Below are positions 25,681-52,189 of a DNA stretch of 64,000 nucleotides, one piece after another (positions within the stretch are counted from its first letter, which is position 1; each line of letters begins with the position of its first letter). Source of the DNA: a virus; the IMG/VR virus record IMGVR_UViG_3300017774_006254, positions 1-64,000 of that record; one strand, given 5' to 3'. The translations under genes were made by a program, and so were the position numbers. The notes under the pieces are model-generated. The model was not told the DNA's origin. It saw only the letters and a program-made list of their open reading frames with translations, and ran no database searches.

Positions 25681-25878
25681 CTACATCACGGCGAGGATGC
25701 CACTGAGGCCGCTCAGAGACGGGGCCTGCTCCTGGCGAAGACGAGACTGAGCCTGACGACGGGCTGCCTCTTGCTGAGCCGCCATGCGCGCCAAGAATGC
25801 ATGTTGCGAGGGTAGCGCCCGACGCCCTTGCGAGGTTGGGGGCTGCTGGTTCGAGGGGACGGTACGGTGGTAGCTCAT
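25681..25878 (-). CDS. small MSY-type protein
   Basis: MSYHRTVPSN...LSGLSG; extended -10 TGATACAAT lies 6 nt before the ATG. Confidence 0.5.
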   Translation of the reverse strand: MSYHRTVPSNQQPPTSQGRRALPSQHAFLARMAAQQEAARRQAQSRLRQEQAPSLSGLSGILAVM

Positions 25879-25913
25879 GCCAGTATTGTATCAGGCCAGC
25901 CGAAGCCGTCGAC

Positions 25914-26672
25914 CTAGTACCCGAACACGGCGCGAAGTTCGACGTTGACCATGTCTGCATCTGCCACGATAAGGTCGGCGTCCTGGCCGCCTGCAAGGTT
26001 CGTAAGCGTTGCCGGGGTGAGCCCTGGGACGCTCCCAGCGTCGAACCGGTCCTGCGTCTTTCCGGCGATCGGCTGGGCAGCGAGAGCTTGCCGCGTGGCC
26101 GTAAACCATGCTCGAACCTCAGCATCGGTTGGCAGCGCGTTCCCGCCAGCCATGCTGTTGACGAAACCATCTTGCGGCGAGATCTGAAGCGACGTGGTGC
26201 CTGGCACGTAAGCAAGCGTCTCTACTTGCTCAGCGACCCTACTGCCGTCAACCCAAAGCACGTACCGGAAGCCTGCATTGACAGGCTCGACCGTGACCAA
26301 CTGAACGACAACTCGAACCTGAAAGTCTGACAGCGGAGCGTTGTACGTAGGAACAACAACGCTGAGAGCATCGAGCGTTGGCTCTACCTCGGCAGAAGAC
26401 TGAACCACGAGCCCATCCCACCGAAGCCTGGACCTCCAGGCCGATGCTCGTTCGACATCCGAGATGAGTGGAAGAGCTGGAGCGCTCGTCGCCTGAACGG
26501 AGCCGAACCAGAACGGAGGAGCGGTGCCGCCTGTCGATGGCGACGGATCTGGCTGCAAGTAGAAGTCCCCAGAAGAACTGGAAAAGAACCACATCAATTG
26601 CGTACCGGCACCCAGCGCGGGCTTCTGTCTGCGCCACGACGTCTTCCACTCAGAACCGCGCCTTGCTGTCAT
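25914..26672 (-). CDS. beta-rich protein, possible ConA/LamG-like spike
   Basis: Beta-strand pattern including YVLWVDGSRVA; lies at the end of the structural module. Confidence 0.45.
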   Translation of the reverse strand: MTARRGSEWKTSWRRQKPALGAGTQLMWFFSSSSGDFYLQPDPSPSTGGTAPPFWFGSVQATSAPALPLISDVERASAWRSRLRWDGLVVQSSAEVEPTLDALSVVVPTYNAPLSDFQVRVVVQLVTVEPVNAGFRYVLWVDGSRVAEQVETLAYVPGTTSLQISPQDGFVNSMAGGNALPTDAEVRAWFTATRQALAAQPIAGKTQDRFDAGSVPGLTPATLTNLAGGQDADLIVADADMVNVELRAVFGY

Positions 26673-27571
26673 GACGACCTCTCTCCGCGCTTCAGCGCAT
26701 CTTCGACTCGATACACAATCCGCCCGTCATCTCCGTACCGGCGAACAACGACTGGCCATTCTCCGTCCCAGTCAATAACCGTTACCTCAACTTCGCCCAC
26801 GTCTGCGACTCGCGCTGCGGCTTCCGCAAACTGCATAGCCGTCGCCAGGTCACTCTGTGCGACGGGGGCGCTCGCTTCATGAACCACGTAGAGTGCTCTT
26901 GCGAGCTTCTGGAGAGCGCGACGCGCTCCGCTCGGGAGACGCTGAGGGAGCCGTTTTGCGCGAGCCTGCGTTGCGGCCTCTTGAATGCGAGATGTCGTCG
27001 TGTCGTCTGGTAGGGGCAGTGGCGGGGCAGGAGGGACAACTGCCACCTGGGGCTCGGGTTCAGGAACCATCGCCACGGCCACGGCCAAGGTCGGCGCACG
27101 GGCTGGGGAGGCGAAGATCTTCGAGGATGCCGCTCGGAGCCTTAACTCGCTCTCCGCGAGAGCTTCCAGCTCAGTCAGTCTGGACATGGCGATGACGTGC
27201 TTCTTCTCCAGGTCGCGCAAGTCCCAGCTCTGCCATCTGGTTTCTGGTTCGGACATCTCCAGAAGAAGCTCAGGCGCGTTGACCATGGCCTCTGCGATGA
27301 TGGCTTCAATGGCCGCTTCCTTGAGCGCGGGAGCTGCCTGTAGAACATCCAGCGGCACGCTGAGTTCCGCACTTAGGTCCACGAGCCTCGGTGGATACGG
27401 AAGCTCTGCCTTCGAGACGACCAAGAAGGCCTTCTCTGGGAAGCCATACAAGCGCTCATGGAACTTCAAGGTCCGCCCGATGTACTCCAGGACAACGCTG
27501 TTCGTCGGCTTGTCAAAGCCGCGCTTGATGTGCGTTCTGGAGAGGACAGGGGTTCGAGCGTGGTCCGGCAT
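26669..27571 (-). CDS. hypothetical protein
   Basis: 300-aa ORF. Confidence 0.6.
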   Translation of the reverse strand: MPDHARTPVLSRTHIKRGFDKPTNSVVLEYIGRTLKFHERLYGFPEKAFLVVSKAELPYPPRLVDLSAELSVPLDVLQAAPALKEAAIEAIIAEAMVNAPELLLEMSEPETRWQSWDLRDLEKKHVIAMSRLTELEALAESELRLRAASSKIFASPARAPTLAVAVAMVPEPEPQVAVVPPAPPLPLPDDTTTSRIQEAATQARAKRLPQRLPSGARRALQKLARALYVVHEASAPVAQSDLATAMQFAEAAARVADVGEVEVTVIDWDGEWPVVVRRYGDDGRIVYRVEDALKRGERSS

Positions 27572-27589
27572 CTTCTTCTCAAGTGACAG

Positions 27590-27703: not shown

Positions 27704-27708
27704 ACCTA

Positions 27709-28335
27709 TCACACGATCAGAGACCGAAGTAGAGCCGCTGCATTGCTCTCGTTCACCAGCCACCCGGTAAGCTCTACGCTGAAGAACCGCAGATCGATGT
27801 TCGGCTCTCGAAAGATCGCGACCTTAGCTATGATTTCGCTATTCGGCGATGCGTAAGCCGCAAAGTTCTGTCCGACAGGAGGCAGGATCGAACCCGAGAA
27901 CGGATAGATTCTACCCTCTCCCGGGCTGACGCCAACCGTACCAGCGGCTCCGCTGTTGCCCAGTGAAGCAAGCACAGCACCCTGCGGGACCGGAGCGGAG
28001 TTTGTATTGAAATTCGTGAGCCCTTGGTTTCCAATCAACAGACTGAATCCCAGGGTCCCCGTAGTACGCGAAGGTGCCACCATCTCGAAGTCGTCGACGC
28101 CAACTCCAGAGTGCTGGAACGCTTTGAATTCGGCCGAACGAAGGACAATGACCTGGTTCCTTTCGACGACCAATTTCATAATCGTCAGCTCGGTAGGGAA
28201 CACTGCTCCGATACCTGGCTGAATTGGATTCGGCATCTCCTTGAAGTAGACGCGCTGGTAGAACGTGGTCTCTTTCTGCGGAAGCAGAGACGAGAATCCG
28301 CCTACTTGTCGAAAGGGAGGGGGCGCCATCATCAC
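27709..28335 (-). CDS. putative beta-sandwich (jelly-roll-like) minor capsid protein
   Basis: Alternating beta strands (KLVVERNQVIVL), terminal strand VELTGWLV; lies near the capsid candidate. Confidence 0.45.
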   Translation of the reverse strand: MMMAPPPFRQVGGFSSLLPQKETTFYQRVYFKEMPNPIQPGIGAVFPTELTIMKLVVERNQVIVLRSAEFKAFQHSGVGVDDFEMVAPSRTTGTLGFSLLIGNQGLTNFNTNSAPVPQGAVLASLGNSGAAGTVGVSPGEGRIYPFSGSILPPVGQNFAAYASPNSEIIAKVAIFREPNIDLRFFSVELTGWLVNESNAAALLRSLIV

Positions 28336-29342
28336 ATCGCAGGCGACTGCGCCTGGAGAATCTTGTAGCCAACGAGCGTGATGTAGAGCGTGCCACCGAG
28401 TGCAACGATCATACGGCCGCTCTGAGCGGGATCGTTCGCGATCGGGTCAGGCGGCGGCGAGACGCCACCTTCCTGGAATCCGTTCGGCAGTGCTGCGTAG
28501 TTGATCTCGGCGAAGCCCAGGTCGCGCGTGAGCGTTGCGGCCACCTTCACCGACGAGCCGCGTTCGTAGAAGTCCGAGACGGGCAAGTAGAGTGGCCGAT
28601 CGAACTCGGAGAACATGAAGCGGCTAGGAATCGGGATCTGGTTCTGACGTTGACGGTCAACGCCGTCGTCGGAGAACTCAAACAGGAAGTCGATCGTTCC
28701 AGGGCGAAACGTCTGAACTGCTTGGGCAGCTGCTGTGTTCGCTGCCGCAGCTGGGATTCCACCAAGGCCGACGCCCAGGTACGCGCCAGAGAAGGGGTCT
28801 GCGGTCGACGCGGTCGGACGGAACCTGCCCGAGAGAGGCGTGATGACTTCCGTGCCAGCGGGCTGGTCGTTCGGACGACCAGGAGCGTCACCAGTGCCTG
28901 CGTACGGGCCAATGGAGTACGTCTTGAGAAGGAACGCGCTCATCAAGGTCGTGCAGACGAACGGGCCGTCCTGGCTGATCTGCTTGCTGTCGACGAGACG
29001 CGACCCAGCGAGAGAGACCGACGGCGAACTCTGGCCAGGAACGTTGATCTGCGTACCAAGAAAGTAAGGCACCCTCTTCCCTGGGATGTCCTCGATGTAC
29101 CTGATACGATCTGCGGCCTTCTTGAGCGCGATGCCCAGGCGCTTGATCTCCATCTTGTCGTCAGCGGCGGCGGCGGCCAGCTCCTGATAGCGCTGCTGCA
29201 CAGCCTCCATCTGTGCTTCCGTGCGCCTCTGCTTTGAGGCCAGTTGACGGGCGAACGCTTCCAATTCCTGTGACATCTGCTCTCCAGAGTTCGGGCCAGC
29301 CGCTGGACTCCTTGTCCTTGGCCAACCGGAAGAACTACTCAC
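28332..29342 (-). CDS. putative jelly-roll-like capsid/penton protein with an N-terminal coiled coil
   Basis: Coiled coil, then QISQDGPFVCTTL...PLYLP...ITLVGYKI; alternative ATG at 29276 has an RBS. Confidence 0.5.
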   Translation of the reverse strand: MSSSSGWPRTRSPAAGPNSGEQMSQELEAFARQLASKQRRTEAQMEAVQQRYQELAAAAADDKMEIKRLGIALKKAADRIRYIEDIPGKRVPYFLGTQINVPGQSSPSVSLAGSRLVDSKQISQDGPFVCTTLMSAFLLKTYSIGPYAGTGDAPGRPNDQPAGTEVITPLSGRFRPTASTADPFSGAYLGVGLGGIPAAAANTAAAQAVQTFRPGTIDFLFEFSDDGVDRQRQNQIPIPSRFMFSEFDRPLYLPVSDFYERGSSVKVAATLTRDLGFAEINYAALPNGFQEGGVSPPPDPIANDPAQSGRMIVALGGTLYITLVGYKILQAQSPAM

Positions 29343-29361
29343 CTTGAGGTGGTGAAGTACC

Positions 29362-32092: not shown

Positions 32093-32905
32093 TCAGAGGA
32101 CGTCGCGGGAGTGGATGCCGTCGATGAGGTACTTGACGTCCTTCTCGATGTCATCGCGACCCGCCGTCGACAGGCCGGTGCCCGAGGCGCCCGACGCGAC
32201 GATCGTTCCGCCAGGACCGTTGCCCCACGCGTCGTTGTTCGGCACGAGGCCGTTCAACTGATCCACAACCGACGCGCCCGAAGCCTGGCCGATCGGCGAT
32301 GCGATCGCGATGACGACGAAGCCCTGACGAGGCGGAATGAGGATCGGACGCGCAAGACGCATGAGCGCCGAGCTGGTGGGCACGCCGTTGTTCGCGCGGG
32401 GAAGGCGCGAATCAGCGAAGAAACCATCGAGACCACCAGCAAACGGCGTGTACGCCGTGTACGTGGTGAGCTGGGGCTTGTCACCAGCTTGGAACTGCCA
32501 GAACAGCTGGTTCTGGGTCTGGTGGTAGAGCTTGTGCACGCGGTTGATGCGGTCTCCGGAGACCGTGCCAACTGCGCCAACCGGCGTCGCGTTGCCCGCG
32601 TTGATCGCAGGGAAAGTCTGGTCCGCGCCGGTCGTCGAACGCGGCGACTCGGTATTGAACCTGAAGTACGTCCAAACGCGGACCGCGAGGGTCACGAACG
32701 TCTGGTCGGAGGGGAAGAAACCACCGGTCGTCAGGTTGCTGACGGCGATGTCCGCACCCTGCTTGGTGAAGAGCTGCGAGCGGCTCTGCACGGCCCCGAA
32801 CACGCCCACGTTCGCCTGACGGAGGTCGCCCTGACCGTCTACGCGAAGGAGGGAATCGTAGAACGGCTGATGGATGCGTTCCCTGGTACCAACAATTTTC
32901 GGCAT
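32093..32905 (-). CDS. putative major capsid protein (single jelly-roll-like)
   Basis: 270 aa from MPKIVG; QPFYDS...LF...SNLTTGGFFPSDQTFVTLAVRV...PILIPPRQGFVV...YLIDG. Strong codon bias, structured leader and downstream hairpin. The fold is inferred, not shown. Confidence 0.55.
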   Translation of the reverse strand: MPKIVGTRERIHQPFYDSLLRVDGQGDLRQANVGVFGAVQSRSQLFTKQGADIAVSNLTTGGFFPSDQTFVTLAVRVWTYFRFNTESPRSTTGADQTFPAINAGNATPVGAVGTVSGDRINRVHKLYHQTQNQLFWQFQAGDKPQLTTYTAYTPFAGGLDGFFADSRLPRANNGVPTSSALMRLARPILIPPRQGFVVIAIASPIGQASGASVVDQLNGLVPNNDAWGNGPGGTIVASGASGTGLSTAGRDDIEKDVKYLIDGIHSRDVL

Positions 32906-33067: not shown

Positions 33068-33883
33068 TCAGCCGAGCATTCCGGAGAAGATGTGACGAGC
33101 GAACACGCCGCCCGCGTAGCCCTGATCGCCCGAAGCGAAAGACTTCGAGACGCGGCGGACCTGAGGCCTGGACTGCATGGGAATCGCGCCGTCCGTAGGC
33201 GTGATGGTGGTGACCGCTTCCATGCGGTTCATCGAGCTGTCGACTGCACCTTGGTCACCGGGCTCGCCAAGGTCGCCGATGCCAGAGATGCCGTCGCCAG
33301 AGTCGCCGAGGCCGCTCATCGGCTGATCGACGTACTCACCGATGCCAGCCGCGGCGTACATCGTGCCGAGACCAAGCATTCCCTTGTAAGGCGCGCCCGC
33401 GTGGGAGATGTCGTATCCACGACCCATCCCAGAGAGCATGCCTTCGTTGTAGTAGCCCGCCGTAGCCGTTGGAGCCGCAGTCGCCGGAGCGCTTGCGACA
33501 GCCGGAAGGATGGCAGCTGCTGGTGAGCCGCCGAGCATCGGCATGTTGCGAATGAACGATTCCGATGCAGCAAGCCCCGCTCCGATCACCGCCGCATTGG
33601 CCATTGGGCCGCTGACGAGGGAAGGAAGCGAACGCTGGGCAGCGAAGTAGGCCGGGATGAGAACGGCCGCAGCGGCAACCTTGCCATACCGTGGGTCGGC
33701 AAGCAAGCTGATTTTGCTGGAGGCGATGTTTCCAGCGACACGGGTGGCGACAAAGCCAACCGTGCCACTGAGAACCGGACTTACGACGTCCCGCACGATG
33801 TCAGAGTCCAAGAAATTCTTGAGAATCCGACGGACTCCCCGCTTCGAGCGGGCATTTTTGCGACTGGTACGGCGACGTGCCAT
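33068..33883 (-). CDS. core/membrane-associated structural protein, paralog of the C-terminus of 33931-36696
   Basis: Basic N-terminus, hydrophobic helices, GEYVDQPMSGLG, C-terminus GYAGGVFARHIFSGMLG. Confidence 0.65.
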   Translation of the reverse strand: MARRRTSRKNARSKRGVRRILKNFLDSDIVRDVVSPVLSGTVGFVATRVAGNIASSKISLLADPRYGKVAAAAVLIPAYFAAQRSLPSLVSGPMANAAVIGAGLAASESFIRNMPMLGGSPAAAILPAVASAPATAAPTATAGYYNEGMLSGMGRGYDISHAGAPYKGMLGLGTMYAAAGIGEYVDQPMSGLGDSGDGISGIGDLGEPGDQGAVDSSMNRMEAVTTITPTDGAIPMQSRPQVRRVSKSFASGDQGYAGGVFARHIFSGMLG

Positions 33884-33930: not shown

Positions 33931-36696
33931 TCAGAGCATTCCGCCGAAGAGATGACGTGCGAACACGCCGCCTGCGTAGCCCTTGCCCTCTGGCGTGACG
34001 AGCGATGCGTTGATCTCGCGATCAAGCGGCATCTGGCCCGTGACCGGAAGCGCTCCGGAGACTGGCATCTCGATCGACGCCCACGGCGGCTGGCGCTTGG
34101 AGTACATGGCGGCCAGGTCTGCATCCGCTTCGCCCGAGCCCATTTCATCGGACCCGAAGCCAGCTGCGGCCTCCATGACGCCGCCTTCCATGGCGTTCAT
34201 GGCGCCATCAATTCCGGCCATGTTGCCCGGATCGATGCCCTCGGCGTACGAGCCGACGCCCGCTGCCGCGTACATCATGCCCATGCCGCTCATCGGCTGA
34301 TCGACGTACTCGCCGGTGCCTGCTGCGGCATAGAACGCGCCCATGCCGTTCATCGGCTGGCTGACGTACTCGCCGATGCCGTTGACGTACTCACCGAGGT
34401 ACGCAGCAGCGCTTGTTCCCGCCGACACGCGCTGAATGACGCGGTCAGCGAGGGCCAGGCCCATGCCGGTGACGAGTGCGCCACGATGACGCCTCACGAT
34501 GCCCACCTTGGTCGCGAGACCAAGCGTTGCAGCGATGCCGAGGATGTTCGCGGCGATCTTGGTGTTCGAGGCGCCCGAAGCGTCCGAAGCGCCCGAGTCA
34601 AGCATGCCTCGGACCGCGCCGATGTTCGCGACACCGTTCGAGAGCAAGCGTGCTGCGATGAAACCAGCGGTGCCGCCAAGAACTGGCGTTGCGACATCAA
34701 GGATCGCGCCCATGCCGTTGCGACGAACGCCACGACGCGAACCACGACGACGACGTGAGCTGCGACGATTCATGACCACGTACTTCTGATTCCTGCGCAT
34801 CGACGACCTCTTTCTCGACGAACGACGCCTTTTGTTCGCCGTCATCTTCCTGCTTGACTTCCTGGACTTGCGCCGCCCGTACCATGCGGGGGGCTTGCGC
34901 CAACGGCTGTAGCGCCTGCGCTCCGCGTATCCACCAGTGGTGGCGCGTGCGTGCGCGTCCTTCGCAGCTCCGCCGAAGCGGAATTTGCGCACGTACGAGT
35001 GCTGCGAGACGTGCGGCGGAACGAGGACCGGATAGCCCGCGTTGCGGAACTTCCTGCCGGACTTCGGGCCGTACTCGACGAGCTGGTAGTAGCGGCCCTT
35101 GGGCGTGCCGACTCGGCTGGAGCCTGAGCCTCGGTACTTGACCTTCGAGACGGCCAGCATGTTGCGCGTCAAGCGCGAGCCACGACGGCGCGAACCACGG
35201 CGTGATCCGCGACGCGAACCGCGACGCGAACTGCGGCGCCTGTTCATGACCACGTACTTCTGGTTGGCCGTCACACGACGACGCGAACCACGACGACGGC
35301 GTGAGCCTCGACGCGATGAACGACGACCATTGGCCGTGGCGTACATCACATTCTTGCTCATGCGACGGCGCGAGTTCCGGCGAACCGAACCCCGACGCGA
35401 CCTGCGACGACGGCGACCGTTGGCTGTTGCGTACATGGTGTTCTTGCTCATCCTGCGACGTGAGTTGCGACGAACCGCTCGGCGCGAACCTCGGCGCGAC
35501 GAACGACGTGACGATCGGCGCGACGCGCGACGCGACCGGCGACGACCATTGGCCGTCATGCGGCGCTTCCTGCGACCACGGTACGTGGCGCCAACCGCGT
35601 AGCCACGCTTCGAGGAACCACGGGGCTTGCCACGCCTGCTGGTGAGACGACCAGCCGAACGCGGGATCGGGTAGGTGAGAATGCTCGGGCGTCCAGAACG
35701 GCTGAGCGGAAGTCGACCAACCCTCGTGATCGTGGGCATCAGCCCGCGCGTGAGGTACTTGTCGATGTACTCGCGGCCCGTCGTGCGAACACGCTTGCCA
35801 TGAAAGTAGCGCTTCTTGCTGGCGCGCCTGCGGGACGAACGGCGACTGCGCTTGCGCCCATTCGCCTGCATGCGGCTGTTGCGGCGACGGCGCGCTGCTG
35901 CACGCGAAGCCCTCGTCGAGTGGCGCTTGCTTCCGCGAGCGACGGCCACACGGCGACTGCCCCTGCGCGAAGACTTCTTCGAGGTCTTGCGTGACGTCTT
36001 GCGGGCCCTCTTCTTTGGACCAGTGCCAGCCTTGCGCGTGAGCGCGGCCTTGCGACCAGCCCGACGACGCGACGTGCGACGCGCTGATGTCTCGCGAATC
36101 GAAGCTCGGCGACGAGCCTTTCCGCGAGGGGTCTGCCTCGATGCGCGACGGCGACGACCACGCGACGAAATGGACATGCCACCCGCCGAACGCGTCTCAG
36201 TCACAGCCTCATGATCTTGACCACCACGAGCAGCTGCGCCCATTCCTGCGTACATCTCGTCTTCGTCGAACCCGTAGTTGCGACGAAGCCCATTGGACTT
36301 CATTGCCTTCCTCAGGGCGCTGATGTTGTATGCCATTCCACTTCTCCTCTTAGGGTTCCTGAGCATCGAGCCAGGGATCGCTTTGGTTAGGACCGTTCCG
36401 TACTCATCGGTCGCGTAGAGACGAGCTTTGCCTCGGCCCTTTCCGGTCTTGTCCGGATGACGCTCCGCCCAAGACTTCGCACCTTGCAGCGTCCTGTACT
36501 GCGGGCTTTCATGGATCTGCTTCCTACGACCAGAGATCCATTGAAATGGATTTTGCTGCGGAGGACGGCCTGTGTTCACGACAGTCAGCGCATTGACCCC
36601 AGGGTTCGAACGAAGACCACGATTCGGCTCCATGCCAGGCGATCTCTCGTACTGGCGCGCCGACTGCTTGGTGCTTCGTTTGTAGACTAGGGCCAT
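33931..36696 (-). CDS. giant Arg/Ser-rich protamine-like core protein with a hydrophobic C-terminal domain
   Basis: 921 aa; SRRGSRR repeats punctuated by xxN motifs; C-terminus GYAGGVFARHLFGGML. Confidence 0.75.
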   Translation of the reverse strand: MALVYKRSTKQSARQYERSPGMEPNRGLRSNPGVNALTVVNTGRPPQQNPFQWISGRRKQIHESPQYRTLQGAKSWAERHPDKTGKGRGKARLYATDEYGTVLTKAIPGSMLRNPKRRSGMAYNISALRKAMKSNGLRRNYGFDEDEMYAGMGAAARGGQDHEAVTETRSAGGMSISSRGRRRRASRQTPRGKARRRASIRETSARRTSRRRAGRKAALTRKAGTGPKKRARKTSRKTSKKSSRRGSRRVAVARGSKRHSTRASRAAARRRRNSRMQANGRKRSRRSSRRRASKKRYFHGKRVRTTGREYIDKYLTRGLMPTITRVGRLPLSRSGRPSILTYPIPRSAGRLTSRRGKPRGSSKRGYAVGATYRGRRKRRMTANGRRRSRRASRRSSRRSSRRGSRRAVRRNSRRRMSKNTMYATANGRRRRRSRRGSVRRNSRRRMSKNVMYATANGRRSSRRGSRRRRGSRRRVTANQKYVVMNRRRSSRRGSRRGSRRGSRRRGSRLTRNMLAVSKVKYRGSGSSRVGTPKGRYYQLVEYGPKSGRKFRNAGYPVLVPPHVSQHSYVRKFRFGGAAKDAHARATTGGYAERRRYSRWRKPPAWYGRRKSRKSSRKMTANKRRRSSRKRSSMRRNQKYVVMNRRSSRRRRGSRRGVRRNGMGAILDVATPVLGGTAGFIAARLLSNGVANIGAVRGMLDSGASDASGASNTKIAANILGIAATLGLATKVGIVRRHRGALVTGMGLALADRVIQRVSAGTSAAAYLGEYVNGIGEYVSQPMNGMGAFYAAAGTGEYVDQPMSGMGMMYAAAGVGSYAEGIDPGNMAGIDGAMNAMEGGVMEAAAGFGSDEMGSGEADADLAAMYSKRQPPWASIEMPVSGALPVTGQMPLDREINASLVTPEGKGYAGGVFARHLFGGML

Positions 36697-38355: not shown

Positions 38356-38356
38356 A

Positions 38357-41644: not shown

Positions 41645-41683
41645 CACACCCTCTTCTCGCAGCGATCACCTCGCGGCGTTTCT

Positions 41684-42355: not shown

Positions 42356-42415
42356 GCCCAGCCTTCAATTGTGAGTTCGAGATCCACCCAAAGATCTCGT
42401 CAGGTTCAGAACAGC

Positions 42416-43492: not shown

Positions 43493-43848
43493 CGCCTGCT
43501 CCTTGGGCGCCTGTTGGCGCGAACTTGCCTCGACGGCTTCAGGGTGTTCCATGCGAACAGCCCAAAGCTGCCAATCGACAACGCGAGTCCAATCAGCGAG
43601 TAACGCTCCATCCGCTGGGCTCGCTGCTCTTCCTTCGACAACTCCGTGACTTGGCCAAGGTGCGACGACTGAAGGTACGGACGACGCGGTCCGAGATGCT
43701 CAGACCGAAGACGAGGCGGCTGCGTGGTGTAGATGAATTGCGACACCGAGCCCCGCTGACGCTGCGGCTGACTGAGGTCCGCAAATACCCACGGGTTCGT
43801 AACTCCCCATGGCTGATAGCCAAGGGCTCTGTTCACTCGGTAGGTCAT
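43489..43848 (-). CDS. tail-anchored membrane protein
   Basis: MTYRVNRALG; HLGQ; TM; VRANRRPRSRR. Confidence 0.6.
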   Translation of the reverse strand: MTYRVNRALGYQPWGVTNPWVFADLSQPQRQRGSVSQFIYTTQPPRLRSEHLGPRRPYLQSSHLGQVTELSKEEQRAQRMERYSLIGLALSIGSFGLFAWNTLKPSRQVRANRRPRSRR

Positions 43849-44117
43849 CACTCCTCCTGACCGCGGCGAATGCTCTTCGCGACGTTCTTCTTGATACGAG
43901 GCATGAGCCAACCCCAGACCGCGTAGCCAATTCCAATTCCCGTGGCAACTCCCAATGGAATCGTGAACGCAGGGCGCTTGTACCAAGCAAGGGCGCTGGT
44001 ATCGACTTGCCCAACGCCGTACAAGGGGACAACGCCTGCTGCCGCTGTGCGGACGCCGGTCATGTTCTGTGCGTAAGCCTCACGAGCTTGAGGCGTGACG
44101 AAGTCCTGTGCGTTCAT
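43848..44117 (-). CDS. tail-anchored membrane protein
   Basis: LYGVGQ; TM; IKKNV. Confidence 0.6.
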   Translation of the reverse strand: MNAQDFVTPQAREAYAQNMTGVRTAAAGVVPLYGVGQVDTSALAWYKRPAFTIPLGVATGIGIGYAVWGWLMPRIKKNVAKSIRRGQEE

Positions 44118-45541
44118 CGAAGTCCAGCCTTCCTCGCAAGCTTCTTGGCGTTGCGCGTGATCGACTTGCGGTTGCTCCAGGCGAAGTAGCCACCAATGCC
44201 GATCGCTGCTCCGATCAGCAAGCGTGTCGGCGTGATGAACGAAGGCGAGGCGGGAGCCACGGGCTCTGCTGTGACCTGGCCCATGCCAGCGACAGCCGCC
44301 GAGCTGAAGAGTGCCCCGAGGTCACCCTTCATTGCATTCTGGTCGCGCACCAGCGGACCAAGATGCGCCGCCGCCGCCGCCTGCATCGGAGCGCGAGTGC
44401 GCCTTACGCTCGTCGACAGACGATCGAGGTTCGGAAGCGATCCTTTTGACCGAGCGACCCCCTGAAGGTCTTTGACCGTTGCGTGCATGATGGCATGCGC
44501 GAGCGTGTCTTCGAGCGCCGACTCGGGCTGCTGCCCAAGGTCCACGAGCCGCTTGGCTGTGCTGCCAGTGCGAGCCGCTGTTCCAGCCCCGAGAGAGTCA
44601 GCTGCCTGAGCGACGAACCTCGACCGCTCCTTGGGAGCCAAAGACCTCGCCTCCGTCATGATGAGACGAGCGGCCTTCCGTCCGAAAGCTTCGACGTGGC
44701 TGCGTGGACCAGACTCGCTCTGACGCATCTCTGGCACAGGCTTGGAGACGAAGGGCGAGTACCCAGGCTTGTACGAGTTGACGTTCGTGGCCAGCGTCAC
44801 GCCGCCAGCCGAAGGCTGAACGACACGCCACTCATTCGCGGTTGTGTCCCACATCTCACTCTGTTGGACGCCAAGATCGTCTTCATCCGCGAGGTAGGCA
44901 GGTAGCGCGTACTGGTTTGCGAAGGAGCCGTCACGCGGACGCCACGTAACCCCTTCTTCCATGTCAAACACGCCGCTTCCGATCGTGCTCTGTGTCGAGT
45001 CGTTGAACTCGTAGCTCTCGCGATCGTACAGCATGTCAGAGGGGATTCCCTCGTTCGATGGCTGCTGGTTGCGGTTGCCATGCCAGGACGCTGGGGGAAC
45101 CTGAACGTCATCGTGGACTTCGAGAACTTCTGGCTCGTTGTGCATATCGTCTCGCGCGAACTTTCTGGGCGGGCTCATGTCAACATCGCCGAGGTTTGAG
45201 TCTCGGAGTGCCATGTCCGTCCGTTGCATCGAATGAGGGCGGTAGCCTACCGCGCTTCCTGGGCCCCAAGGATACGAGCCGTAGGTGGTCGCAGCCGCGT
45301 CCGGACTGTCCACGTCGTCTGCGATCTTGAATCGAGACATGCCTTCGACATCTGGAGCTGGAGCTGCGCCGGGGTTCCTTCCTGGAGTCGACAGTGTGTC
45401 TTCCTGAAGGTCGTCATCGAGGAACGATGAACCTTGCCCATTGGGACCACGGGCGTAGTCCTGCGCGTCAAGGTTCGCGTTGCCTCGCATGGTCGGAATG
45501 GCCATGTCGCCATCATCGTCAAACCCGTAATCGTTACTCAT
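44114..45541 (-). CDS. acidic, tail-anchored structural protein
   Basis: Acidic disordered N-half; helical domain shared with the 46252 and 46902 proteins; VAGMGQ; TM; ITRNAKK. Confidence 0.7.
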   Translation of the reverse strand: MSNDYGFDDDGDMAIPTMRGNANLDAQDYARGPNGQGSSFLDDDLQEDTLSTPGRNPGAAPAPDVEGMSRFKIADDVDSPDAAATTYGSYPWGPGSAVGYRPHSMQRTDMALRDSNLGDVDMSPPRKFARDDMHNEPEVLEVHDDVQVPPASWHGNRNQQPSNEGIPSDMLYDRESYEFNDSTQSTIGSGVFDMEEGVTWRPRDGSFANQYALPAYLADEDDLGVQQSEMWDTTANEWRVVQPSAGGVTLATNVNSYKPGYSPFVSKPVPEMRQSESGPRSHVEAFGRKAARLIMTEARSLAPKERSRFVAQAADSLGAGTAARTGSTAKRLVDLGQQPESALEDTLAHAIMHATVKDLQGVARSKGSLPNLDRLSTSVRRTRAPMQAAAAAHLGPLVRDQNAMKGDLGALFSSAAVAGMGQVTAEPVAPASPSFITPTRLLIGAAIGIGGYFAWSNRKSITRNAKKLARKAGLR

Positions 45542-45553
45542 GTCTCTCCTCAC

Positions 45554-46252
45554 TCACTTCAACAGGAAGTATCCGACGCCGAGGGTGGCCACAACTGCGC
45601 TTCCGCCCATCAAATAGAGGCGAATCTGCGCACTGCGCGCGTTGGCCTGGTTGGCTGATGCCTGAGCCGCTGCCGCTGCCTGAGCCATCTGAAGGTTCGC
45701 CTGAGCTTGCGCCGCCGCCGCCGCTGCCTCGCGACTCTCGCGCCCACAGTCAAGCTCTCCTCCAGCAATAGCCGATCCGATGCTTAGTACACCGCCTACG
45801 ATTTGACCGTACACGGGAATGACACTGGCCACGCCACCGACCGTCGACGCGCCGCTCGCAATGCTACATGCGGTAGCTCGGTCATTCGCGGAGAACGCGC
45901 CTAGCGCCTCTGCTCCGTGGATACGTGCCGCATCCATCCGAAGCGACTCGATACCTTCGCCACGCTTGAAGTTCGCGATGGCAAGTCGGATCGCGTCGAA
46001 CAAAGACTGGTCGTTGCCTTTTCCAGACGATACGATCTCCTGGTACATCCGATTGACATGGCGAGCCATGCCAGGAGCGATAGCGTCCAGGCTATTGCTG
46101 ATGAATCTGCGGCGTACATCAACTGGCTTCCGTGCCGCTTTGAGTAGTAGCTGCGAAGCGCGCAGTGATGCGTTCGCAAGTACCGCGTCGTGTTGCGCCG
46201 CGGAACCTACCGTCATGGCCCTTGACGGGCGAGCTGCTAGTGAGTACGTCAT
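45554..46252 (-). CDS. tail-anchored membrane protein, paralog A
   Basis: ASLRASQLL...DQSLFDAIRLAIAN; C-terminal TM. Confidence 0.7.
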   Translation of the reverse strand: MTYSLAARPSRAMTVGSAAQHDAVLANASLRASQLLLKAARKPVDVRRRFISNSLDAIAPGMARHVNRMYQEIVSSGKGNDQSLFDAIRLAIANFKRGEGIESLRMDAARIHGAEALGAFSANDRATACSIASGASTVGGVASVIPVYGQIVGGVLSIGSAIAGGELDCGRESREAAAAAAQAQANLQMAQAAAAAQASANQANARSAQIRLYLMGGSAVVATLGVGYFLLK

Positions 46253-46902
46253 TACTTCAGAGCGATCTTGGCTGCGACAGCTAGCGCCAAAATCCCAGCG
46301 ATTCCGACGCCCGCATAGAGTACCGTGCGATTCGTCTGCGCGCCCGTGTTTAGCCTTGCCATCTCTAGGGCGGCGGCGGCCTGCTGCGCGGCCACTTCAG
46401 CTTGTAGGCGAAGGGTCGGGAGGTTGCAATTCCCAATCGCCGCTCCAGCATTCGCTCCTCCGACGATGGAGGTGTCTGCTCCAGATCGAAACGCTCCAAC
46501 CCAGCCGCCCGTGCTCGCTGAGAGCGAGGCACCTGTGCAGGCAAACGTGTTCGCATCCGCGGCGAAGTCGCCAAGCCCCGACATGCCACGAGCCGCCTGA
46601 CTTCCAGCCCATTCCTGTAGGCGATTGGCGAGCACGAGCCGAATCGCGTCGAACACCGCTTGATCCGGAGTGCGCGTGCGAGAGATGATGCCGATCTTTG
46701 CGATCGCTTCGTCTCCCATCTTTGGCCACAGGTTGTTCAGGCGGTTGCGAAGCCAAGCCATTCTGGATGAAGCGTCAACCTTGGCCATGTGGAGCATGAC
46801 TTCGCTCGCCATGAGCGAAGCTTTGCTCACGAACGGATCTGTCTGAGCAAGCTGCCCCGAGACGACTTGCCCGAGCCCAGCCATTGCTTGTGCGTAGCTC
46901 AT
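46252..46902 (-). CDS. tail-anchored membrane protein, paralog B
   Basis: MSYAQAMAGLGQ; ASLMASEVM...DQAVFDAIRLVLAN; MSGLGD; C-terminal TM. Confidence 0.7.
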   Translation of the reverse strand: MSYAQAMAGLGQVVSGQLAQTDPFVSKASLMASEVMLHMAKVDASSRMAWLRNRLNNLWPKMGDEAIAKIGIISRTRTPDQAVFDAIRLVLANRLQEWAGSQAARGMSGLGDFAADANTFACTGASLSASTGGWVGAFRSGADTSIVGGANAGAAIGNCNLPTLRLQAEVAAQQAAAALEMARLNTGAQTNRTVLYAGVGIAGILALAVAAKIALK

Positions 46903-47234
46903 CGACTTCTCCGACGCGACTTTCGGCCGCTTCTGTTCTTGGTGACACCAGGACGCGCAAAGCCTTGCGTGAACGCAATCACCGGGACAACAACAGGGAG
47001 CATCGCGCCCCCAAGAAACCACGCGAGCGTCCACCCGAGGTCGCCGCGATTCCGCTTGTACCCATGGTACGCAGAAACCGCTGCGCTGATAGTCGAGAGT
47101 CCCCAACCAGCAACCACCATCGCTCCTGTCGGTCGGAACGTGACGGTGATCGGAGACGGAACTGAATCGATCGCCTGTCCGAACGCTGAGAGGCCGATTC
47201 CGGGACCGTCGTAGTAGTTCGTCTTGGTGGTCAT
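46899..47234 (-). CDS. two-TM membrane protein
   Basis: AYHGYKRN between two hydrophobic helices; VTKNRSGRKSRRRSR tail. Confidence 0.65.
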   Translation of the reverse strand: MTTKTNYYDGPGIGLSAFGQAIDSVPSPITVTFRPTGAMVVAGWGLSTISAAVSAYHGYKRNRGDLGWTLAWFLGGAMLPVVVPVIAFTQGFARPGVTKNRSGRKSRRRSR

Positions 47235-47235
47235 A

Positions 47236-47832
47236 TCAGTCAATCTCGAAAATGGTGTATTGCTTGATCCGACGAAGCATATTCCCTGTCCGGCGCCCCG
47301 CAACAGGATCGAGGACCCACCACTGCTTCGTGCGGGGATCTTGAGCACGCGCAAAGACGTGCGTATGAATTTTCGGCTCGCCAGCCAACTGCGGCTTGAA
47401 GCCACAAGTGACAAACTGACCTCGGGCCCCGATTGTCAGACAAGATGTAGCAATCGCGAGAGCGATGTCGTCACAGTCGCAAGCGGCACGCCCCGCAAGG
47501 GCATCAGCCAGAATACGGTCGGGACTGCGAATCAGCTCAACGTGCAGAGGATCGCGCGTGTACCTGGTTGCGTTTCCCCACCAGCGGGAGATCGCGATGC
47601 ACTCGCTCGAATAGTCCTTCGGCCGCACGTTGTTGATGATCTGTTCCGTGTGTCTGCGGAAACTGATACTGCGCTCCCCCTGCAACGCATTCTGCACCAT
47701 CACTCGCGGGTCGACGAGACCCTTTGCGAGGTTGATCATCACGGCAACAGTGTGATCAGTACCTCGGTATGGTTCCGTGGTACCAACTGCGTTGTTGTAG
47801 GTCGGTGAGTATGAGTTTGCTCTGAGCTGCAT
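47236..47832 (-). CDS. transglutaminase-like (papain-fold) cysteine enzyme, putative maturation protease
   Basis: RYTRDP..VELI.SP, CDCDDIA (Cys), HTHVF (His), WWVLDP (Asp). Confidence 0.8.
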   Translation of the reverse strand: MQLRANSYSPTYNNAVGTTEPYRGTDHTVAVMINLAKGLVDPRVMVQNALQGERSISFRRHTEQIINNVRPKDYSSECIAISRWWGNATRYTRDPLHVELIRSPDRILADALAGRAACDCDDIALAIATSCLTIGARGQFVTCGFKPQLAGEPKIHTHVFARAQDPRTKQWWVLDPVAGRRTGNMLRRIKQYTIFEID

Positions 47833-48393: not shown

Positions 48394-48665
48394 TAGGCCT
48401 GCTCGGTCTCCTTCGACTGCACGAAGCCCCAGAGGCGCATCATCTTCATGGGGTCTTGCATGATGGATCGGAATGCCTCCTTGGCCCCAGATGCATTGTC
48501 GCCGACGAGTTCGCCAAGTTCAGCAACGACTGCATCCATCTCCTGCATTTTTTCACGCAGGAGTGAGTCCGGAGCTTCCAAGTTCAAAGCCACGAGAAGC
48601 TCCTCGCCGATGGCGATTGCCCTCATCGCTTTCTCTCCGACGCCCTTCAGCTCTTCTTCGGTCAT
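48393..48665 (-). CDS. hypothetical helical protein
   Basis: Coupled ORF. Confidence 0.55.
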   Translation of the reverse strand: MTEEELKGVGEKAMRAIAIGEELLVALNLEAPDSLLREKMQEMDAVVAELGELVGDNASGAKEAFRSIMQDPMKMMRLWGFVQSKETEQA

Positions 48666-51082
48666 TGTTGCAATCCTGCGGAAATACGAGCAAAAGCTTC
48701 GAGTACGAACTTCTGTCCAGCGGGCGTTGCGCCTGCCGAATTGGGTGCGGTCTCCATGATACCACGAGCGATATCCTCAGGCTTGTAGACGCTCACGACT
48801 TGGCGCAAGGTCGCCGCGGGCCAGTCTCGCAGAACCGCCTCTGCGAACTCTTCTGGTTCGTCCGCATTGGAGACCGCCTTGTGGACCAGCGTGGAGAGGA
48901 GGGTGAGCCCTTGCCGCTCTTGTGAAGTCATCGTGCGCGCGACTCGGGCTGGCGGCTCTGGTGGCGGCGCAGGTGGCTGATCGAAGATCGTCGGTTCTTG
49001 ACGCCGCTCTGGGCGCCTCTCAGGGCGACGCGGTTCTTCTTCTCCGCCGCCTTCCCACGGTGGCCTGCGCCGCGTTGGAAGCGGTTCGGAGCCGTACTGA
49101 CTGGGCTCCGCGAAGTTCTGCGTTGCCGACACGGTCTTCCGGCGCGGTGGCTGTGCGAGGTCGTCCGCGTCAGGAATTCCTTGGCGTCTCGGCGCTACAA
49201 CTGACTGTCTGCGCGGGGGAAGCATGCGTCCTTGCGGCGGCGCTTGCATCGCCGCTTTCGGAACAAGCCCCAGTCCTCCTTGCGGAGTCTCGATCACAAC
49301 CATCTCTCCGTTCGGAGTGTTGACGATCTGGCCGACGGTGTACTGCGGCGCTTGCTGCGGCGCTTGTTGCTGGGGTGCCATCATGGCGCCGATTACCTGC
49401 ATCAGCTGTGGCAGTCTGTCTGTCACACCTTCGGCAAGTTGCGTCTTCCAGTCGTCGCCCGTTGGAGGAGAGATTCCGCCGCCACTGCTTCCGCCGCTGT
49501 TCGACGGCACGCCGAAAGCGTCCCGAAGCTCGTTCGTCTTGTGGAGCAGGGCGATCGGATCGCTGTTGTCAACCATGCGACTCTTCATGTCGGCGCCTTC
49601 ACTTCGAAGGCGATCGATCTCCTGCTGAAGCCATCCAGCGCGGTTCTCCATGCTCGCGACGACTGTCTGGTGACGGCTCTCCCAGTTCTGGTTTGTCGTG
49701 GAAAGCTGCATTTCCATGCGGTCCTTCCACGCGCGGTCTGACGCCTCGTTCAATTCTCGATGACGCTCTTGGTCGCGGCGACGCTCTTCGCGTTCGTTCT
49801 TGAGCAGGTCTTCGATGCGTTCTTCACGGCGCTTCGCCTCGGTCCTGTCTGCTGCAAGCTCTCGTTGATGGCTCTCACGCATCGAAGAGAGTTCTTGCGC
49901 GTGCGACTGCCGCATCGAGTTGACCAGGTTGTCGTGCTGCTTCGACTGCGTTTCCAGCAGTTGCTGTGTCTGCGCGCGAACAGCTTCGAGATCGGTCTGG
50001 TGCTTTGACAGCACGCTTTCCAGCATGCGCTCGGCGGACTTACCGCTCTCCCCCTTGTCACCGCTGCCTTGCATCAGCGCGAAGATGTTTTTGATTGTTT
50101 CAGAGGGCGATTCGCGCTGACGGTCCATTTCTTCCTGTCTCTCTCGGATGATTTTCATCTCCGCTGCCTGAACGCTCAGCTGTTCCTGGAGATACCGACG
50201 CTCCAGTTCAGAGCGCTCTTTTTCCGCCCTCACCAGATCGTCCGCGCGTTGCCGTTCCATGTCGATCAGGGGGCGCATGTTTGCTGTCGCGATCTCAGCC
50301 ATCTTCGACGCGCGCTCCTCAGAGCGAATGCGTTCCTGACGTTCGTCCTTGGCCAACTCAGTTGCCATTTTCATGGCCACTTCTGTCGACTTCGGATTCT
50401 CGGCTGCGGGATAGTGCATCTGTGGGATGGATGCTGCTGCCGCCGACTCGCGAGCGGCCACGGCTGCTGCGCCGTTCTGAATCGCCCTCGGCTGACGATT
50501 AGAATTCGGGTCTCCAGCCAAAGAGATCGTGATCGAGTCGTAGTGCTTGAGCACTTGCGGCTTGTCTGGGGTCGGGCCCATCACGACGATGCGATACACG
50601 CCGCCGCCGTACTCGGACATCAGGAACTCTTCAGTGAGAACCTGCTGCCACGTGTCGTAGTACCCATCTGCCTTGATCCCGCCAGGAAAAATCTTTGGCC
50701 AATTCCTGTAGAGGTAGAGGCAATACTCGGTTGTCTGCCCGATGTTGTACTTGGACATCAAGTCGCCGAGAGACTTCTCTTTCTCGACAACTTTCATCAC
50801 TTTCTGCGGAGGAAGGATGGCATCCAGAACTTCGGAAGAAACCGTCTCCTTGGGCTCTCTCACCCTCGGCGCACGCCTTGGCTTCGGTGCTTCCTCGGCG
50901 TCGATGTCCTGCACCTTCTCCTCTTCGTCATCCTCTTCCTCCTCGTCGTCGTCCTCTTCGCGAGCGCGTACTCGCGAAGGCGGAAGACTTTGAGGTGCCG
51001 TGACAACACGTCGTGTTCCAGCTCCAGAAGCGCGAGACGCGATGTCTGCAACTTCGTCGTCGATATCAAACATCGTCGACAT
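48662..51082 (-). CDS. large coiled-coil protein
   Basis: About 806 aa: acidic N-terminus, small globular domain, long E/R/Q-rich coiled coil, Pro-rich C-terminal part. Confidence 0.8.
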   Translation of the reverse strand: MSTMFDIDDEVADIASRASGAGTRRVVTAPQSLPPSRVRAREEDDDEEEEDDEEEKVQDIDAEEAPKPRRAPRVREPKETVSSEVLDAILPPQKVMKVVEKEKSLGDLMSKYNIGQTTEYCLYLYRNWPKIFPGGIKADGYYDTWQQVLTEEFLMSEYGGGVYRIVVMGPTPDKPQVLKHYDSITISLAGDPNSNRQPRAIQNGAAAVAARESAAAASIPQMHYPAAENPKSTEVAMKMATELAKDERQERIRSEERASKMAEIATANMRPLIDMERQRADDLVRAEKERSELERRYLQEQLSVQAAEMKIIRERQEEMDRQRESPSETIKNIFALMQGSGDKGESGKSAERMLESVLSKHQTDLEAVRAQTQQLLETQSKQHDNLVNSMRQSHAQELSSMRESHQRELAADRTEAKRREERIEDLLKNEREERRRDQERHRELNEASDRAWKDRMEMQLSTTNQNWESRHQTVVASMENRAGWLQQEIDRLRSEGADMKSRMVDNSDPIALLHKTNELRDAFGVPSNSGGSSGGGISPPTGDDWKTQLAEGVTDRLPQLMQVIGAMMAPQQQAPQQAPQYTVGQIVNTPNGEMVVIETPQGGLGLVPKAAMQAPPQGRMLPPRRQSVVAPRRQGIPDADDLAQPPRRKTVSATQNFAEPSQYGSEPLPTRRRPPWEGGGEEEPRRPERRPERRQEPTIFDQPPAPPPEPPARVARTMTSQERQGLTLLSTLVHKAVSNADEPEEFAEAVLRDWPAATLRQVVSVYKPEDIARGIMETAPNSAGATPAGQKFVLEAFARISAGLQQ

Positions 51083-51632
51083 TTTCACTCACTTCTGACG
51101 AGTCCGCGGCGGCATCGCCTGAGGCAGCTTCCGGCTCCGCATCGCCCTCAGTGGGCTTCTCGTCGTCTCGCGTGCCCATCAGATCTTCTGCAAGATCCTC
51201 GATGCTCTCGCTGCAACGGTTGAAGGCCGCCTGAAGCTCCTCGTCGTCAGGGTACTTCTTCTGAAGAAGAGAGCCTAGCGCGAAGAAGTCTTCCTCAAGC
51301 GCTTCCAGAGCTTCAGCACCGGGGACAATCAGCTCGCCGTTGGCCCCCTCGACAGGAGTGCCGAGCTTCGCCAGTGCGCCGCCGTACACCTGGCGCATGC
51401 TCAAGACCTGCTCTTCGGTGCTCACCGCGAGGGTGTAGATGTCGAAGAGGCCCTGGCCCATGAGCGTGACGATGTCTTGCAGGCGCGGGTAGAGGAACTG
51501 CGCGAGGAACGCCTTGAGCTGCTCCGGCTTGGCGAACTCCTTGTCGCGGACAAGCTTCTGACGATCTTCCTTGAGCTTGCCGATCAGGTTGACGAATTCT
51601 GGAGCGAGGGGGACTTCGTTTTCTTGCGCCAT
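51066..51632 (-). CDS. acidic helical protein
   Basis: Start refined to MAQENEV. Confidence 0.65.
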   Translation of the reverse strand: MAQENEVPLAPEFVNLIGKLKEDRQKLVRDKEFAKPEQLKAFLAQFLYPRLQDIVTLMGQGLFDIYTLAVSTEEQVLSMRQVYGGALAKLGTPVEGANGELIVPGAEALEALEEDFFALGSLLQKKYPDDEELQAAFNRCSESIEDLAEDLMGTRDDEKPTEGDAEPEAASGDAAADSSEVSENVDDV

Positions 51633-51664
51633 TTTGGACTCTTCTTTCTGATGGATCTGGTGGA

Positions 51665-52189
51665 CTAAAAATCGAGCTTTCCGCTCTTTTCTGAGGTTTC
51701 GGCCGCCAGGTCTTTCTGACGCTGGCGGAAGTCTCGAACGATGCGAATCGAGACGAGATCTTGCGGGCTCCGAGCGTTGCACGCGTAGACGTTTCCGCGG
51801 TGCTCCCACTGTTCGGATCCAGTGGCGAGCCAGCGGCAAAACTGCCGAATCTGGCGCATCTCGCCAAAGCCTTTTGCGACGCCATCAGCTGGCAACACGA
51901 GCGTGACCAAGTGCACGCACTCGGGGCGCGTTCCGTCGGATGACTCTGCGCAGATGAAATTGGCGTCCGTAAGGCCGTCTTCTTGTTCTGGAGGGCCATC
52001 TCCACCGACAGCAGGCATGCCGTCCGCTGCCATGCTGACTCCGACGAATCCGGTCTTGTAGTATTTTGACGAGTCGACCTCCATGCGCTGCTGGCCGTGG
52101 TGTCCGACCTCGGTTTCGCTCAGATCTCCTGGCTGATCTCCGCTTTCAGGCGAGTTGGGGTCGAAGATGCCGTTCTCGTTGGGATTCAT
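51665..52189 (-). CDS. Cys-containing hypothetical protein; first gene of the leftward module
   Basis: Start refined to MNPNENG; four spaced Cys residues. Confidence 0.6.
   Translation of the reverse strand: MNPNENGIFDPNSPESGDQPGDLSETEVGHHGQQRMEVDSSKYYKTGFVGVSMAADGMPAVGGDGPPEQEDGLTDANFICAESSDGTRPECVHLVTLVLPADGVAKGFGEMRQIRQFCRWLATGSEQWEHRGNVYACNARSPQDLVSIRIVRDFRQRQKDLAAETSEKSGKLDF

Follow-up and report, generated by a model that had tools for sequence, protein, structure and literature searches.

It is generally held that a prokaryotic virus with a large genome requires an HK97 head, a portal and a terminase, and the tailless, membrane-containing viruses of bacteria and archaea known to us have small genomes. 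The first 64,000 bases of the IMG/VR record IMGVR_UViG_3300017774_006254, hereafter the window, raise the question of what kind of particle is encoded by a block of about 26 kb (positions 25,681 to 52,189) in which a first-pass annotation, made from the letters of the window, had seen the morphogenesis module of a tailless virus with an internal membrane. That annotation had put the genome at more than 64 kb, and the source contig bears this out: it is 161,502 bases long, its first 124 bases recur at its end, and IMG/VR classes the record as having direct terminal repeats and as 100% complete, making the window the first 64 kb of a 161.5-kb genome. Most likely, the block holds the virion genes of a large double-stranded DNA (dsDNA) virus, circular or circularly permuted, that is not a tailed phage. 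We believe with moderate confidence that this 161-kb virus of a freshwater bacterium is tailless and contains a membrane, with a jelly-roll shell and protein-condensed DNA; the particle, its membrane, the condensation of its DNA, a processing step and the host are what we infer from the genes described below.

Open reading frames (ORFs), called with a self-trained codon model and from plain ORF lists, form an unbroken minus-strand run of about 37 ORFs from about 25.6 to 51.8 kb, and the minus-strand genes continue leftward to 17.6 kb. The co-directional arrangement noted at first pass is thus confirmed by ORF calling, and the contents reported for it (beta-rich capsid-like proteins, basic core proteins, about 15 membrane proteins and a cysteine enzyme) were all recovered, as proteins of 270, 314 and 208 residues, the first two of which model as strand-rich jelly rolls; a protein of net charge +188 and others with Arg-rich tails; 15 to 17 membrane proteins by hydropathy; and an enzyme with invariant motifs. 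Known families contribute little to this picture. The ten largest block proteins have no PHROG family match and no significant Pfam match, and when all 38 block ORFs were scanned against both collections a Nudix domain at 38753-39472 was the sole match. A megablast comparison of window positions 33-52.5 kb with GenBank phages returned no match.

Candidate shell proteins

The candidate major capsid protein, which we call JR-A, is a 270-residue protein (32096-32905, minus strand) that is 64-83% identical in five relatives and has the highest G+C content at third codon positions within the block. An exhaustive profile search with JR-A collected 88 clusters, whose proteins are mostly of 180-260 residues. 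Its AlphaFold2 model, built on a 53-sequence alignment, has a mean predicted local distance difference test score (pLDDT) of 75 and a predicted template modelling score (pTM) of 0.76, with a core above pLDDT 90 and three insertions of low confidence, and takes the form of an eight-stranded sandwich with one helix. In a structure search independent of Foldseek, run over 48,161 PDB representatives, the top solved match of this model was a capsid chain of Sulfolobus polyhedral virus 1 (SPV1; 6oj0_T, Z 8.0 over 135 residues, 3.3 A). Further matches were P23-77 VP17 (Z 7.2), then the turret jelly roll of Sulfolobus turreted icosahedral virus, PR772, Haloarcula hispanica icosahedral virus 2 (HHIV-2), Haloarcula californiae icosahedral virus 1 (HCIV-1) and small plant-virus coats. 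Searching again among Foldseek's top 1000 chains gave 6oj0_A at Z 8.3 and VP17 at Z 7.2, and the weak list of Foldseek itself consisted almost entirely of viral jelly-roll capsids.

JR-B, a 314-residue protein (28335-29276, minus strand), combines a 60-residue N-terminal helix with a jelly-roll domain and may be a second capsid or penton protein. Its identity to the counterparts in the relatives is 55-78%, and none of its 266 homologues is named. The beta domain of its AlphaFold2 model also had SPV1 6oj0_T as its top match (Z 8.2 over 135 residues), followed by HCIV-1 at Z 6.9. Structure prediction had been proposed at first pass for every ORF from 25.9 to 52.2 kb; run on JR-A and JR-B, it returned a jelly roll for each, with the SPV1 capsid as top solved match. 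The modelling supports JR-A and JR-B as eight-stranded single jelly rolls of about 190-250 residues. Since models without a true match commonly reach a best Z of 7-8 in the calibration of this search, it is the fold that is supported, while kinship of JR-A or JR-B with the SPV1 capsid protein is unproven.

A third beta-rich protein of 208 residues (27712-28335, minus strand), kept in all relatives at 31-48% identity, may be a further beta-sandwich shell or vertex protein. Its ESM Atlas model, of low confidence (pTM 0.56), resembles beta-sandwiches, among them GH172 and the P-domain, at template modelling scores of 0.5-0.58. Profile-profile comparison found no similarity between JR-A and JR-B or between the 208-residue protein and either of them, and paralogy of the three is therefore unsupported by sequence. 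The profiles of all three likewise had no match among PDB sequences, and a fold search of the ESM Atlas returned only unnamed viral clusters. A complex prediction for JR-A with JR-B scored 0.00 and counts neither for nor against their pairing.

Candidate core, membrane and enzyme proteins

A protamine-like protein of 921 residues (33931-36696, minus strand) is a candidate membrane-tethered, DNA-condensing core protein. It has a net charge of +188 and an isoelectric point of about 12, and a stretch of repeats, residues 171-690, consists of Arg to 29% and of Ser to 13%. By simple arithmetic from the net charge, about 1,700 copies would suffice to neutralise the genome, which has roughly 323,000 phosphates. 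Its final 230 residues form a hydrophobic, Gly/Ala-rich part with a paralogue in the adjoining 271-residue protein (33068-33883, minus strand), which has a basic N-terminus and is also kept in relatives; the two have the motifs GEYVDQPMSG and GYAGGVFARH in common. The C-terminal 400 residues of the 921-residue protein are kept in all relatives. Several other block proteins carry Arg-rich tails.

A crude hydropathy scan flagged 18 of the 37 block ORFs, against 20 of 173 elsewhere in the genome. Dropping three likely beta-strand false positives and adding two missed proteins leaves about 15-17 membrane proteins in the block, most of which are anchored once, at the C-terminus, ahead of a short basic tail. 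Hydropathy, C-termini and conservation together define a cluster of mostly tail-anchored proteins at 39420-47106 (minus strand), many of which start with MSY and end in a transmembrane segment and an Arg-rich tail. The cluster includes conserved proteins of 223, 479, 232 and 284 residues, and its part at 39.9-42.7 kb is the most variable among freshwater strains.

A 198-residue protein (47239-47832, minus strand) is a candidate maturation protease, a putative transglutaminase-like Cys-His-Asp enzyme. It is 62-67% identical in relatives, and its motifs DCDD, HTHVF and LDP are invariant in four genomes. It has no Pfam match of its own; in language-model features its nearest neighbours are viral Transglut_core (PF01841) clusters, at a score of 0.97, which we take as a lead and not as proof. 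Its profile matched only designed Kelch-type repeat proteins, a match we rejected as a repeat artefact. A possible substrate motif is found in the core protein, where a hydrophobic residue, two arbitrary residues and Asn ([VMLIF]-x-x-N) precede a basic run seven times, against 0.55 expected; the three homologues of this protein are enriched in the motif likewise. The variant [VMLIF]-x-[AKPRST]-N with an Arg/Lys run after it is strongly enriched in the 921-residue protein and its homologues; genome-wide, it occurs at the C-termini of about eight proteins, several of them anchored membrane proteins, and is a candidate processing or recognition site. Taken with the conserved cysteine enzyme, this enrichment suggests, by analogy with adenoviruses, a possible step of proteolytic maturation.

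Search for tailed-phage and packaging genes

The first-pass annotation had recognised no terminase, portal, HK97 capsid or tail gene in the 64 kb of the window and had named the finding of such genes elsewhere on the contig as evidence against its reading. Essentially all ORFs of at least 60 residues in the 161.5-kb genome were scanned against PHROGs, and unannotated ORFs were scanned again, including those of two batches for which the 25 best families were displayed; Pfam was searched as well, with some 50 of the larger proteins. Across the whole genome these scans gave no valid match to a terminase, portal, HK97 capsid, tail, tape-measure, baseplate, FtsK or A32 family. Six-frame Pfam searches agreed: Terminase_6N and Phage_capsid were negative in this genome and five relatives, TerL_ATPase, Phage_portal and Capsid_NCLDV in this genome and four relatives, and Pox_A32, searched in this genome, gave no match. 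With FtsK_SpoIIIE the only match in this genome was a sub-threshold one of 16 bits inside an SNF2 helicase. At the level of PHROG and Pfam profiles, the lack of tailed-phage genes therefore extends from the window to the full genome and, by Pfam, to the relatives tested, and the check suggested at first pass, an FtsK/A32-type packaging ATPase versus a terminase and portal beyond the window, turned up neither kind.

Two apparent exceptions proved to be artefacts. A match to the 'terminase large subunit' family phrog_19299 corresponds by Pfam to a Hint and LAGLIDADG intein within a 1040-residue helicase of ResIII/SNF2 type (genome 81383-84505). The 'portal protein' family phrog_15528 matches a Nudix domain, and the same model also matches in 14 of 14 control genomes. 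Two Nudix hydrolases of this genome match it, one in the block (38753-39472, minus strand; PF00293, E 7e-20) and one at genome 151574-152476, and for both the 'portal' annotation is misleading.

A survey of Walker-A motifs found only a MoxR ATPase, helicases and a conserved 1059-residue P-loop protein. The MoxR ATPase is paired with a DUF2201 metallopeptidase/von Willebrand factor A protein (genome 67363-69911), and Pfam identifies a ComM-like Mg-chelatase ATPase at 62480-64042 in window numbering. The 1059-residue protein (genome 87858-91037) was considered as a packaging ATPase and rejected: it has four invariant Cys residues and weak XPD/Rad3 matches and adjoins an archaeo-eukaryotic primase, and is probably an Fe-S helicase outside the Pfam families. 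No conjugation or secretion ATPase and no relaxase was seen in the PHROG scans of the genome, and no DNA polymerase was found in it.

Relatives, distribution and host

A search of IMG/VR with JR-A identified five related contigs, of 171, 160, 298 and 153 kb and a 62-kb fragment, and the 160-kb relative also has terminal repeats. Three relative genomes were compared over their full length. The entire block, from the J-domain gene at 24401 to the 257-residue gene ending at 51839, is conserved and syntenic in the relatives, which is the outcome of the gene-sharing comparison called for at first pass. JR-A (61-82% identity) and JR-B are the best conserved proteins in this comparison, followed by the cysteine enzyme. 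JR-B lies directly after JR-A in the relatives, whereas in this window less conserved accessory genes stand between them. A primase, helicases, an integrase, kinases, a phosphatase and glycosyltransferases are likewise conserved and syntenic. A distant 10.8-kb contig keeps the same order of a basic protein, a JR-A homologue and a helix-plus-beta protein, with anchored membrane proteins, a DnaJ protein and glycosyltransferases further on.

Contigs of 139-158 kb that are near-identical or 91-92% identical to this genome occur in other freshwater and sediment metagenomes, one of them at about 156x depth. The differences between strains at 91-92% identity concentrate at window positions 30.0-32.1 and 39.9-42.7 kb, leaving the shell genes intact. 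These regions hold the accessory genes between JR-B and JR-A and the MSY-type tail-anchored paralogues, and they vary by replacement and deletion.

The genome has a G+C content of 59% and one tRNA-Arg(TCT), and besides the block it encodes functions in replication, repair, methylation, glycosyl transfer, phosphorylation and dephosphorylation (kinases and phosphatases) and integration. Of the called starts, 41% follow a Shine-Dalgarno-like motif, compared with 18% of random positions, and there are genes for a TnpB-like protein, a tyrosine integrase and ParB. The use of Shine-Dalgarno-like motifs, together with the TnpB/Cas12f-like, integrase and ParB genes, points to a prokaryotic host. Relatives have been binned in metagenome-assembled genomes (MAGs) of Planctomycetota (two), Deltaproteobacteria and Acidobacteriota. 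From the Shine-Dalgarno usage and these bacterial bins we infer a virus of a freshwater bacterium, and by binning its host would belong to the Planctomycetota or the 'Deltaproteobacteria'. A 106-kb contig in a Planctomycetota MAG was considered as a possible junction with host DNA and rejected, as it is viral from end to end and has no integration site.

Proposed assembly and alternative explanations

We propose that JR-A, JR-B and possibly the 208-residue protein would form an icosahedral outer shell, and that the roughly 15 tail-anchored proteins would populate a lipid layer beneath it. The 921-residue Arg/Ser-rich protein would neutralise and condense the genome, while its hydrophobic C-terminal domain and the 271-residue paralogue would tie the nucleoprotein to the membrane. 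Shell and membrane would then assemble around the condensed DNA, with no pumping into a preformed head; because such a route would need no pumping, it could explain that no packaging ATPase was found. The transglutaminase-like enzyme may process core and membrane proteins at hydrophobic-x-x-Asn sites before Arg runs, and the J-domain protein may help assembly by recruiting host Hsp70.

Several observations weigh against this proposal. The particle and its membrane are deduced here from genes, and the lack of a terminase, portal and HK97 capsid holds for sequence profiles; two proteins were folded, and an HK97 fold could lie in the conserved 300-, 479-, 417- and 418-residue proteins. The AlphaFold2 model of JR-B is of modest confidence (pLDDT 64, pTM 0.55). 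The matches to SPV1 are borderline, at Z of about 8, and non-viral sandwiches (nucleoplasmin, PHM and cupins) reach Z 5.5-7.3 with JR-A, about one Z unit below its best match; Foldseek searches of PDB and BFVD with the JR-A model gave nothing at E <= 0.001. In tailed phages, too, jelly-roll proteins are used, as decoration, cement and fibre domains, and phage entries of this kind (KHP40 cement, phage 7-7-1 fibre and Pam1) are among the jelly-roll matches.

This last point would be expected of a very divergent tailed phage (Caudoviricetes) whose hallmark genes escape the profiles and whose jelly rolls are decoration, cement or receptor-binding proteins, an explanation that we consider quite unlikely. 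Genomes of 150-300 kb are typical of jumbo tailed phages, related Atlas clusters are labelled 'Uroviricota' by automatic taxonomy, and several conserved proteins of 300-480 residues have been neither folded nor annotated. The large terminase, however, is normally the easiest phage gene to detect, and none was found by PHROG or Pfam here or by Pfam in the relatives; the only apparent terminase and portal hits are the artefacts described above, and nothing resembling a tape measure or baseplate was matched. The block also contains a protamine-like protein and some 15 membrane proteins, which tailed phages are not known to have, and JR-A and JR-B are the most conserved proteins of the lineage, as would be expected of major rather than accessory shell proteins. 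A different objection concerns the architecture of the particle. A jelly-roll virus might have no internal membrane, its anchored proteins residing in the host membrane for entry exclusion, as assembly sites or for lysis, or it might use a novel packaging motor that went undetected, or both. The internal membrane is deduced from hydropathy, the anchored paralogues differ between strains as host-interaction proteins do, and unassigned conserved proteins and several ATPases (ComM-like, MoxR and helicases) are present. These ATPases, however, lie in replication or metabolic contexts and belong to clear non-packaging families, and the anchored proteins are encoded between the core and shell genes, co-directionally and in synteny in all relatives. 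We regard such an architecture as unlikely.

That the element is not a virus, but a large plasmid or other mobile element whose block specifies an apparatus at the membrane or a protein compartment, appears very unlikely. Plasmids commonly carry ParB, PcfJ-like, integrase and TnpB-like genes, as this genome does, its relatives are binned into bacterial MAGs, and no virus hallmark gene was recognised by sequence. Against this, encapsidation is the best explanation for a protein of charge +188 encoded beside two highly conserved jelly-roll proteins, the high depth of a related contig (about 156x) was reached in a single freshwater sample, the 106-kb MAG contig is homologous to the virus throughout with no host flank, and conjugation or secretion ATPases and relaxases were not seen in the PHROG scans. 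We retain the tailless, membrane-containing jelly-roll virus as the preferred reading.

Comparison with known virus groups

In the profiles and models examined, the lineage showed none of the tested hallmarks of tailed phages or of double-jelly-roll Varidnaviria. The first-pass annotation had placed it near the Varidnaviria, as a much larger, uncharacterised lineage; the tailless jelly-roll reading and the large size stand, but membership does not follow, the shell candidates being single jelly rolls, and a Varidnaviria assignment is not shown because no FtsK/A32-type packaging ATPase was found. The family Portogloboviridae is a better analogue than the double-jelly-roll Varidnaviria, and the closest one. 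SPV1 shows that such an architecture exists: its capsid proteins VP4 and VP10 are both single jelly rolls, and the particle also has an inner layer of lipid with subcapsomer proteins and a core of VP1 and DNA (PMC8459092). Portogloboviruses have genomes of about 20 kb and no identifiable DNA polymerase, and a packaging ATPase is not among the nine assigned functions of SPV1 (PMC8459092). The present virus resembles them in its two small single-jelly-roll shell candidates, both with SPV1 6oj0 as best solved match at a borderline Z of 8.0-8.3, and in its many small membrane proteins and dedicated DNA-condensing protein, here predicted from genes. It also shares a circular or terminally overlapping dsDNA genome, glycosyltransferase and methyltransferase genes, and the failure to find a DNA polymerase or packaging ATPase. 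The differences are considerable: the shell candidates show no sequence similarity in profile searches of PDB, the genome is eightfold larger (161 kb versus 20 kb), and the host appears to be a mesophilic freshwater bacterium rather than a hyperthermophilic archaeon of the Sulfolobales. The core protein is here a 921-residue Arg/Ser-rich protein with a membrane-like domain, JR-A has long insertions, and JR-B has its 60-residue N-terminal helix. A Z of about 8 between predicted models and SPV1 does not establish common ancestry.

Sphaerolipovirus-like viruses (Helvetiavirae) carry an FtsK/HerA-type packaging ATPase beside their capsid genes and have genomes of 16-31 kb. Those compared, P23-77 (VP16/VP17), HCIV-1, HHIV-2 and SH1, have two adjacent single-jelly-roll genes and an internal membrane; the corresponding candidates of the present lineage, predicted from models, adjoin in the relatives and are separated by accessory genes in the window, and its membrane is deduced. 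Their proteins are among the structural matches (VP17 at Z 7.2, HCIV-1 at Z 5.4-6.9 and HHIV-2 at Z 5.5), with no sequence similarity, but their packaging ATPase was not found here. The Tectiviridae, Corticoviridae, Turriviridae and other prokaryotic double-jelly-roll viruses (Bamfordvirae) are similar to the proposed virus in being tailless, in having an internal membrane with many small membrane proteins and in their co-directional morphogenesis operon. Their hallmark is the double jelly roll, whereas the models of JR-A and JR-B show a single jelly roll of eight strands each, and neither an ATPase nor a Capsid_NCLDV match was found. Surveyed prokaryotic viruses whose major capsid protein is a double jelly roll have genomes of about 7-18 kb (PMC5894146).

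With adenoviruses (proteins VII, V, mu and adenain) there is a functional analogy only, in the Arg-rich core within a jelly-roll shell and in maturation by a cysteine protease. Adenain differs in fold and catalytic order, adenovirus packaging involves the IVa2 ATPase, the adenovirus particle has no membrane, and processing is deduced in the present virus from motif enrichment. In adenoviruses, Arg-rich core proteins condense the dsDNA, and a cysteine protease of the virion cleaves a number of precursors at a short motif that recurs in them. To our knowledge, the other cases in which proteins drive genome condensation are adenoviruses, baculoviruses and sperm chromatin.

We found no description in the literature of jelly-roll viruses of bacteria of this size, and until now the design appears to be known only from viruses roughly a tenth of its size. 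It is possible, at somewhat less than even chances in our estimate, that these genomes represent a high-rank lineage, between family and realm, undescribed and widespread in the environment, of bacterial viruses of 85 to more than 300 kb with a membrane-lined single-jelly-roll shell, protamine-like condensation and motor-less assembly; this would indicate that motor-less assembly around a nucleoprotein core scales to the genome sizes of jumbo phages. If our reading is true, a widespread freshwater lineage of 150-300 kb jelly-roll viruses with a protamine-like core protein and without a packaging ATPase would break the rule on size and extend the bacterial virosphere by a major branch that is still unclassified. 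It would also offer a bacterial system in which to study the condensation of genomes by proteins. In virome surveys, genomes of this kind probably carry the wrong label of Caudoviricetes.

Other genes of the block and genome

The remaining conserved genes of the block suggest further candidates for virion or assembly roles. At the far end, an 808-residue acidic coiled-coil protein and the 257-residue acidic protein (48662-51839, minus strand) are kept in all relatives and are candidate scaffold or assembly factors; their only Pfam matches are weak ones to coiled-coil families. Proteins of 252 and 300 residues (25914-27571, minus strand) are 28-51% identical in relatives, have no significant family match in PHROG or Pfam and are vertex or spike candidates. 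Two further conserved proteins, of 238 and 113 residues (37687-38698, minus strand), are 42-73% and 53-66% identical in relatives, respectively, and the smaller has a C-terminal anchor. The J-domain (DnaJ) protein that flanks the block (24401-25081, minus strand; PF00226, E 5.6e-11) is kept in all relatives and on the distant 10.8-kb contig, and is possibly an Hsp70-recruiting assembly factor.

The strongest hairpins on the minus strand of the block are at 32055-32018 and 25633-25601, the latter at the 3' end of the block. The former, a G+C-rich hairpin of 17 pairs, is the strongest in the block and lies directly 3' of the JR-A stop codon, where it may act as a terminator or as an mRNA stabiliser of a highly expressed gene.

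Outside the block, a 624-residue protein (genome 74613-76487) has a Cas12f1-like TNB domain of the TnpB/Cas12-like kind; portogloboviruses carry mini-CRISPR arrays (PMC8459092). A 266-residue protein (genome 132079-132879) gives the strongest Pfam match of the genome by a wide margin, to DUF7873 at E 1.4e-84.

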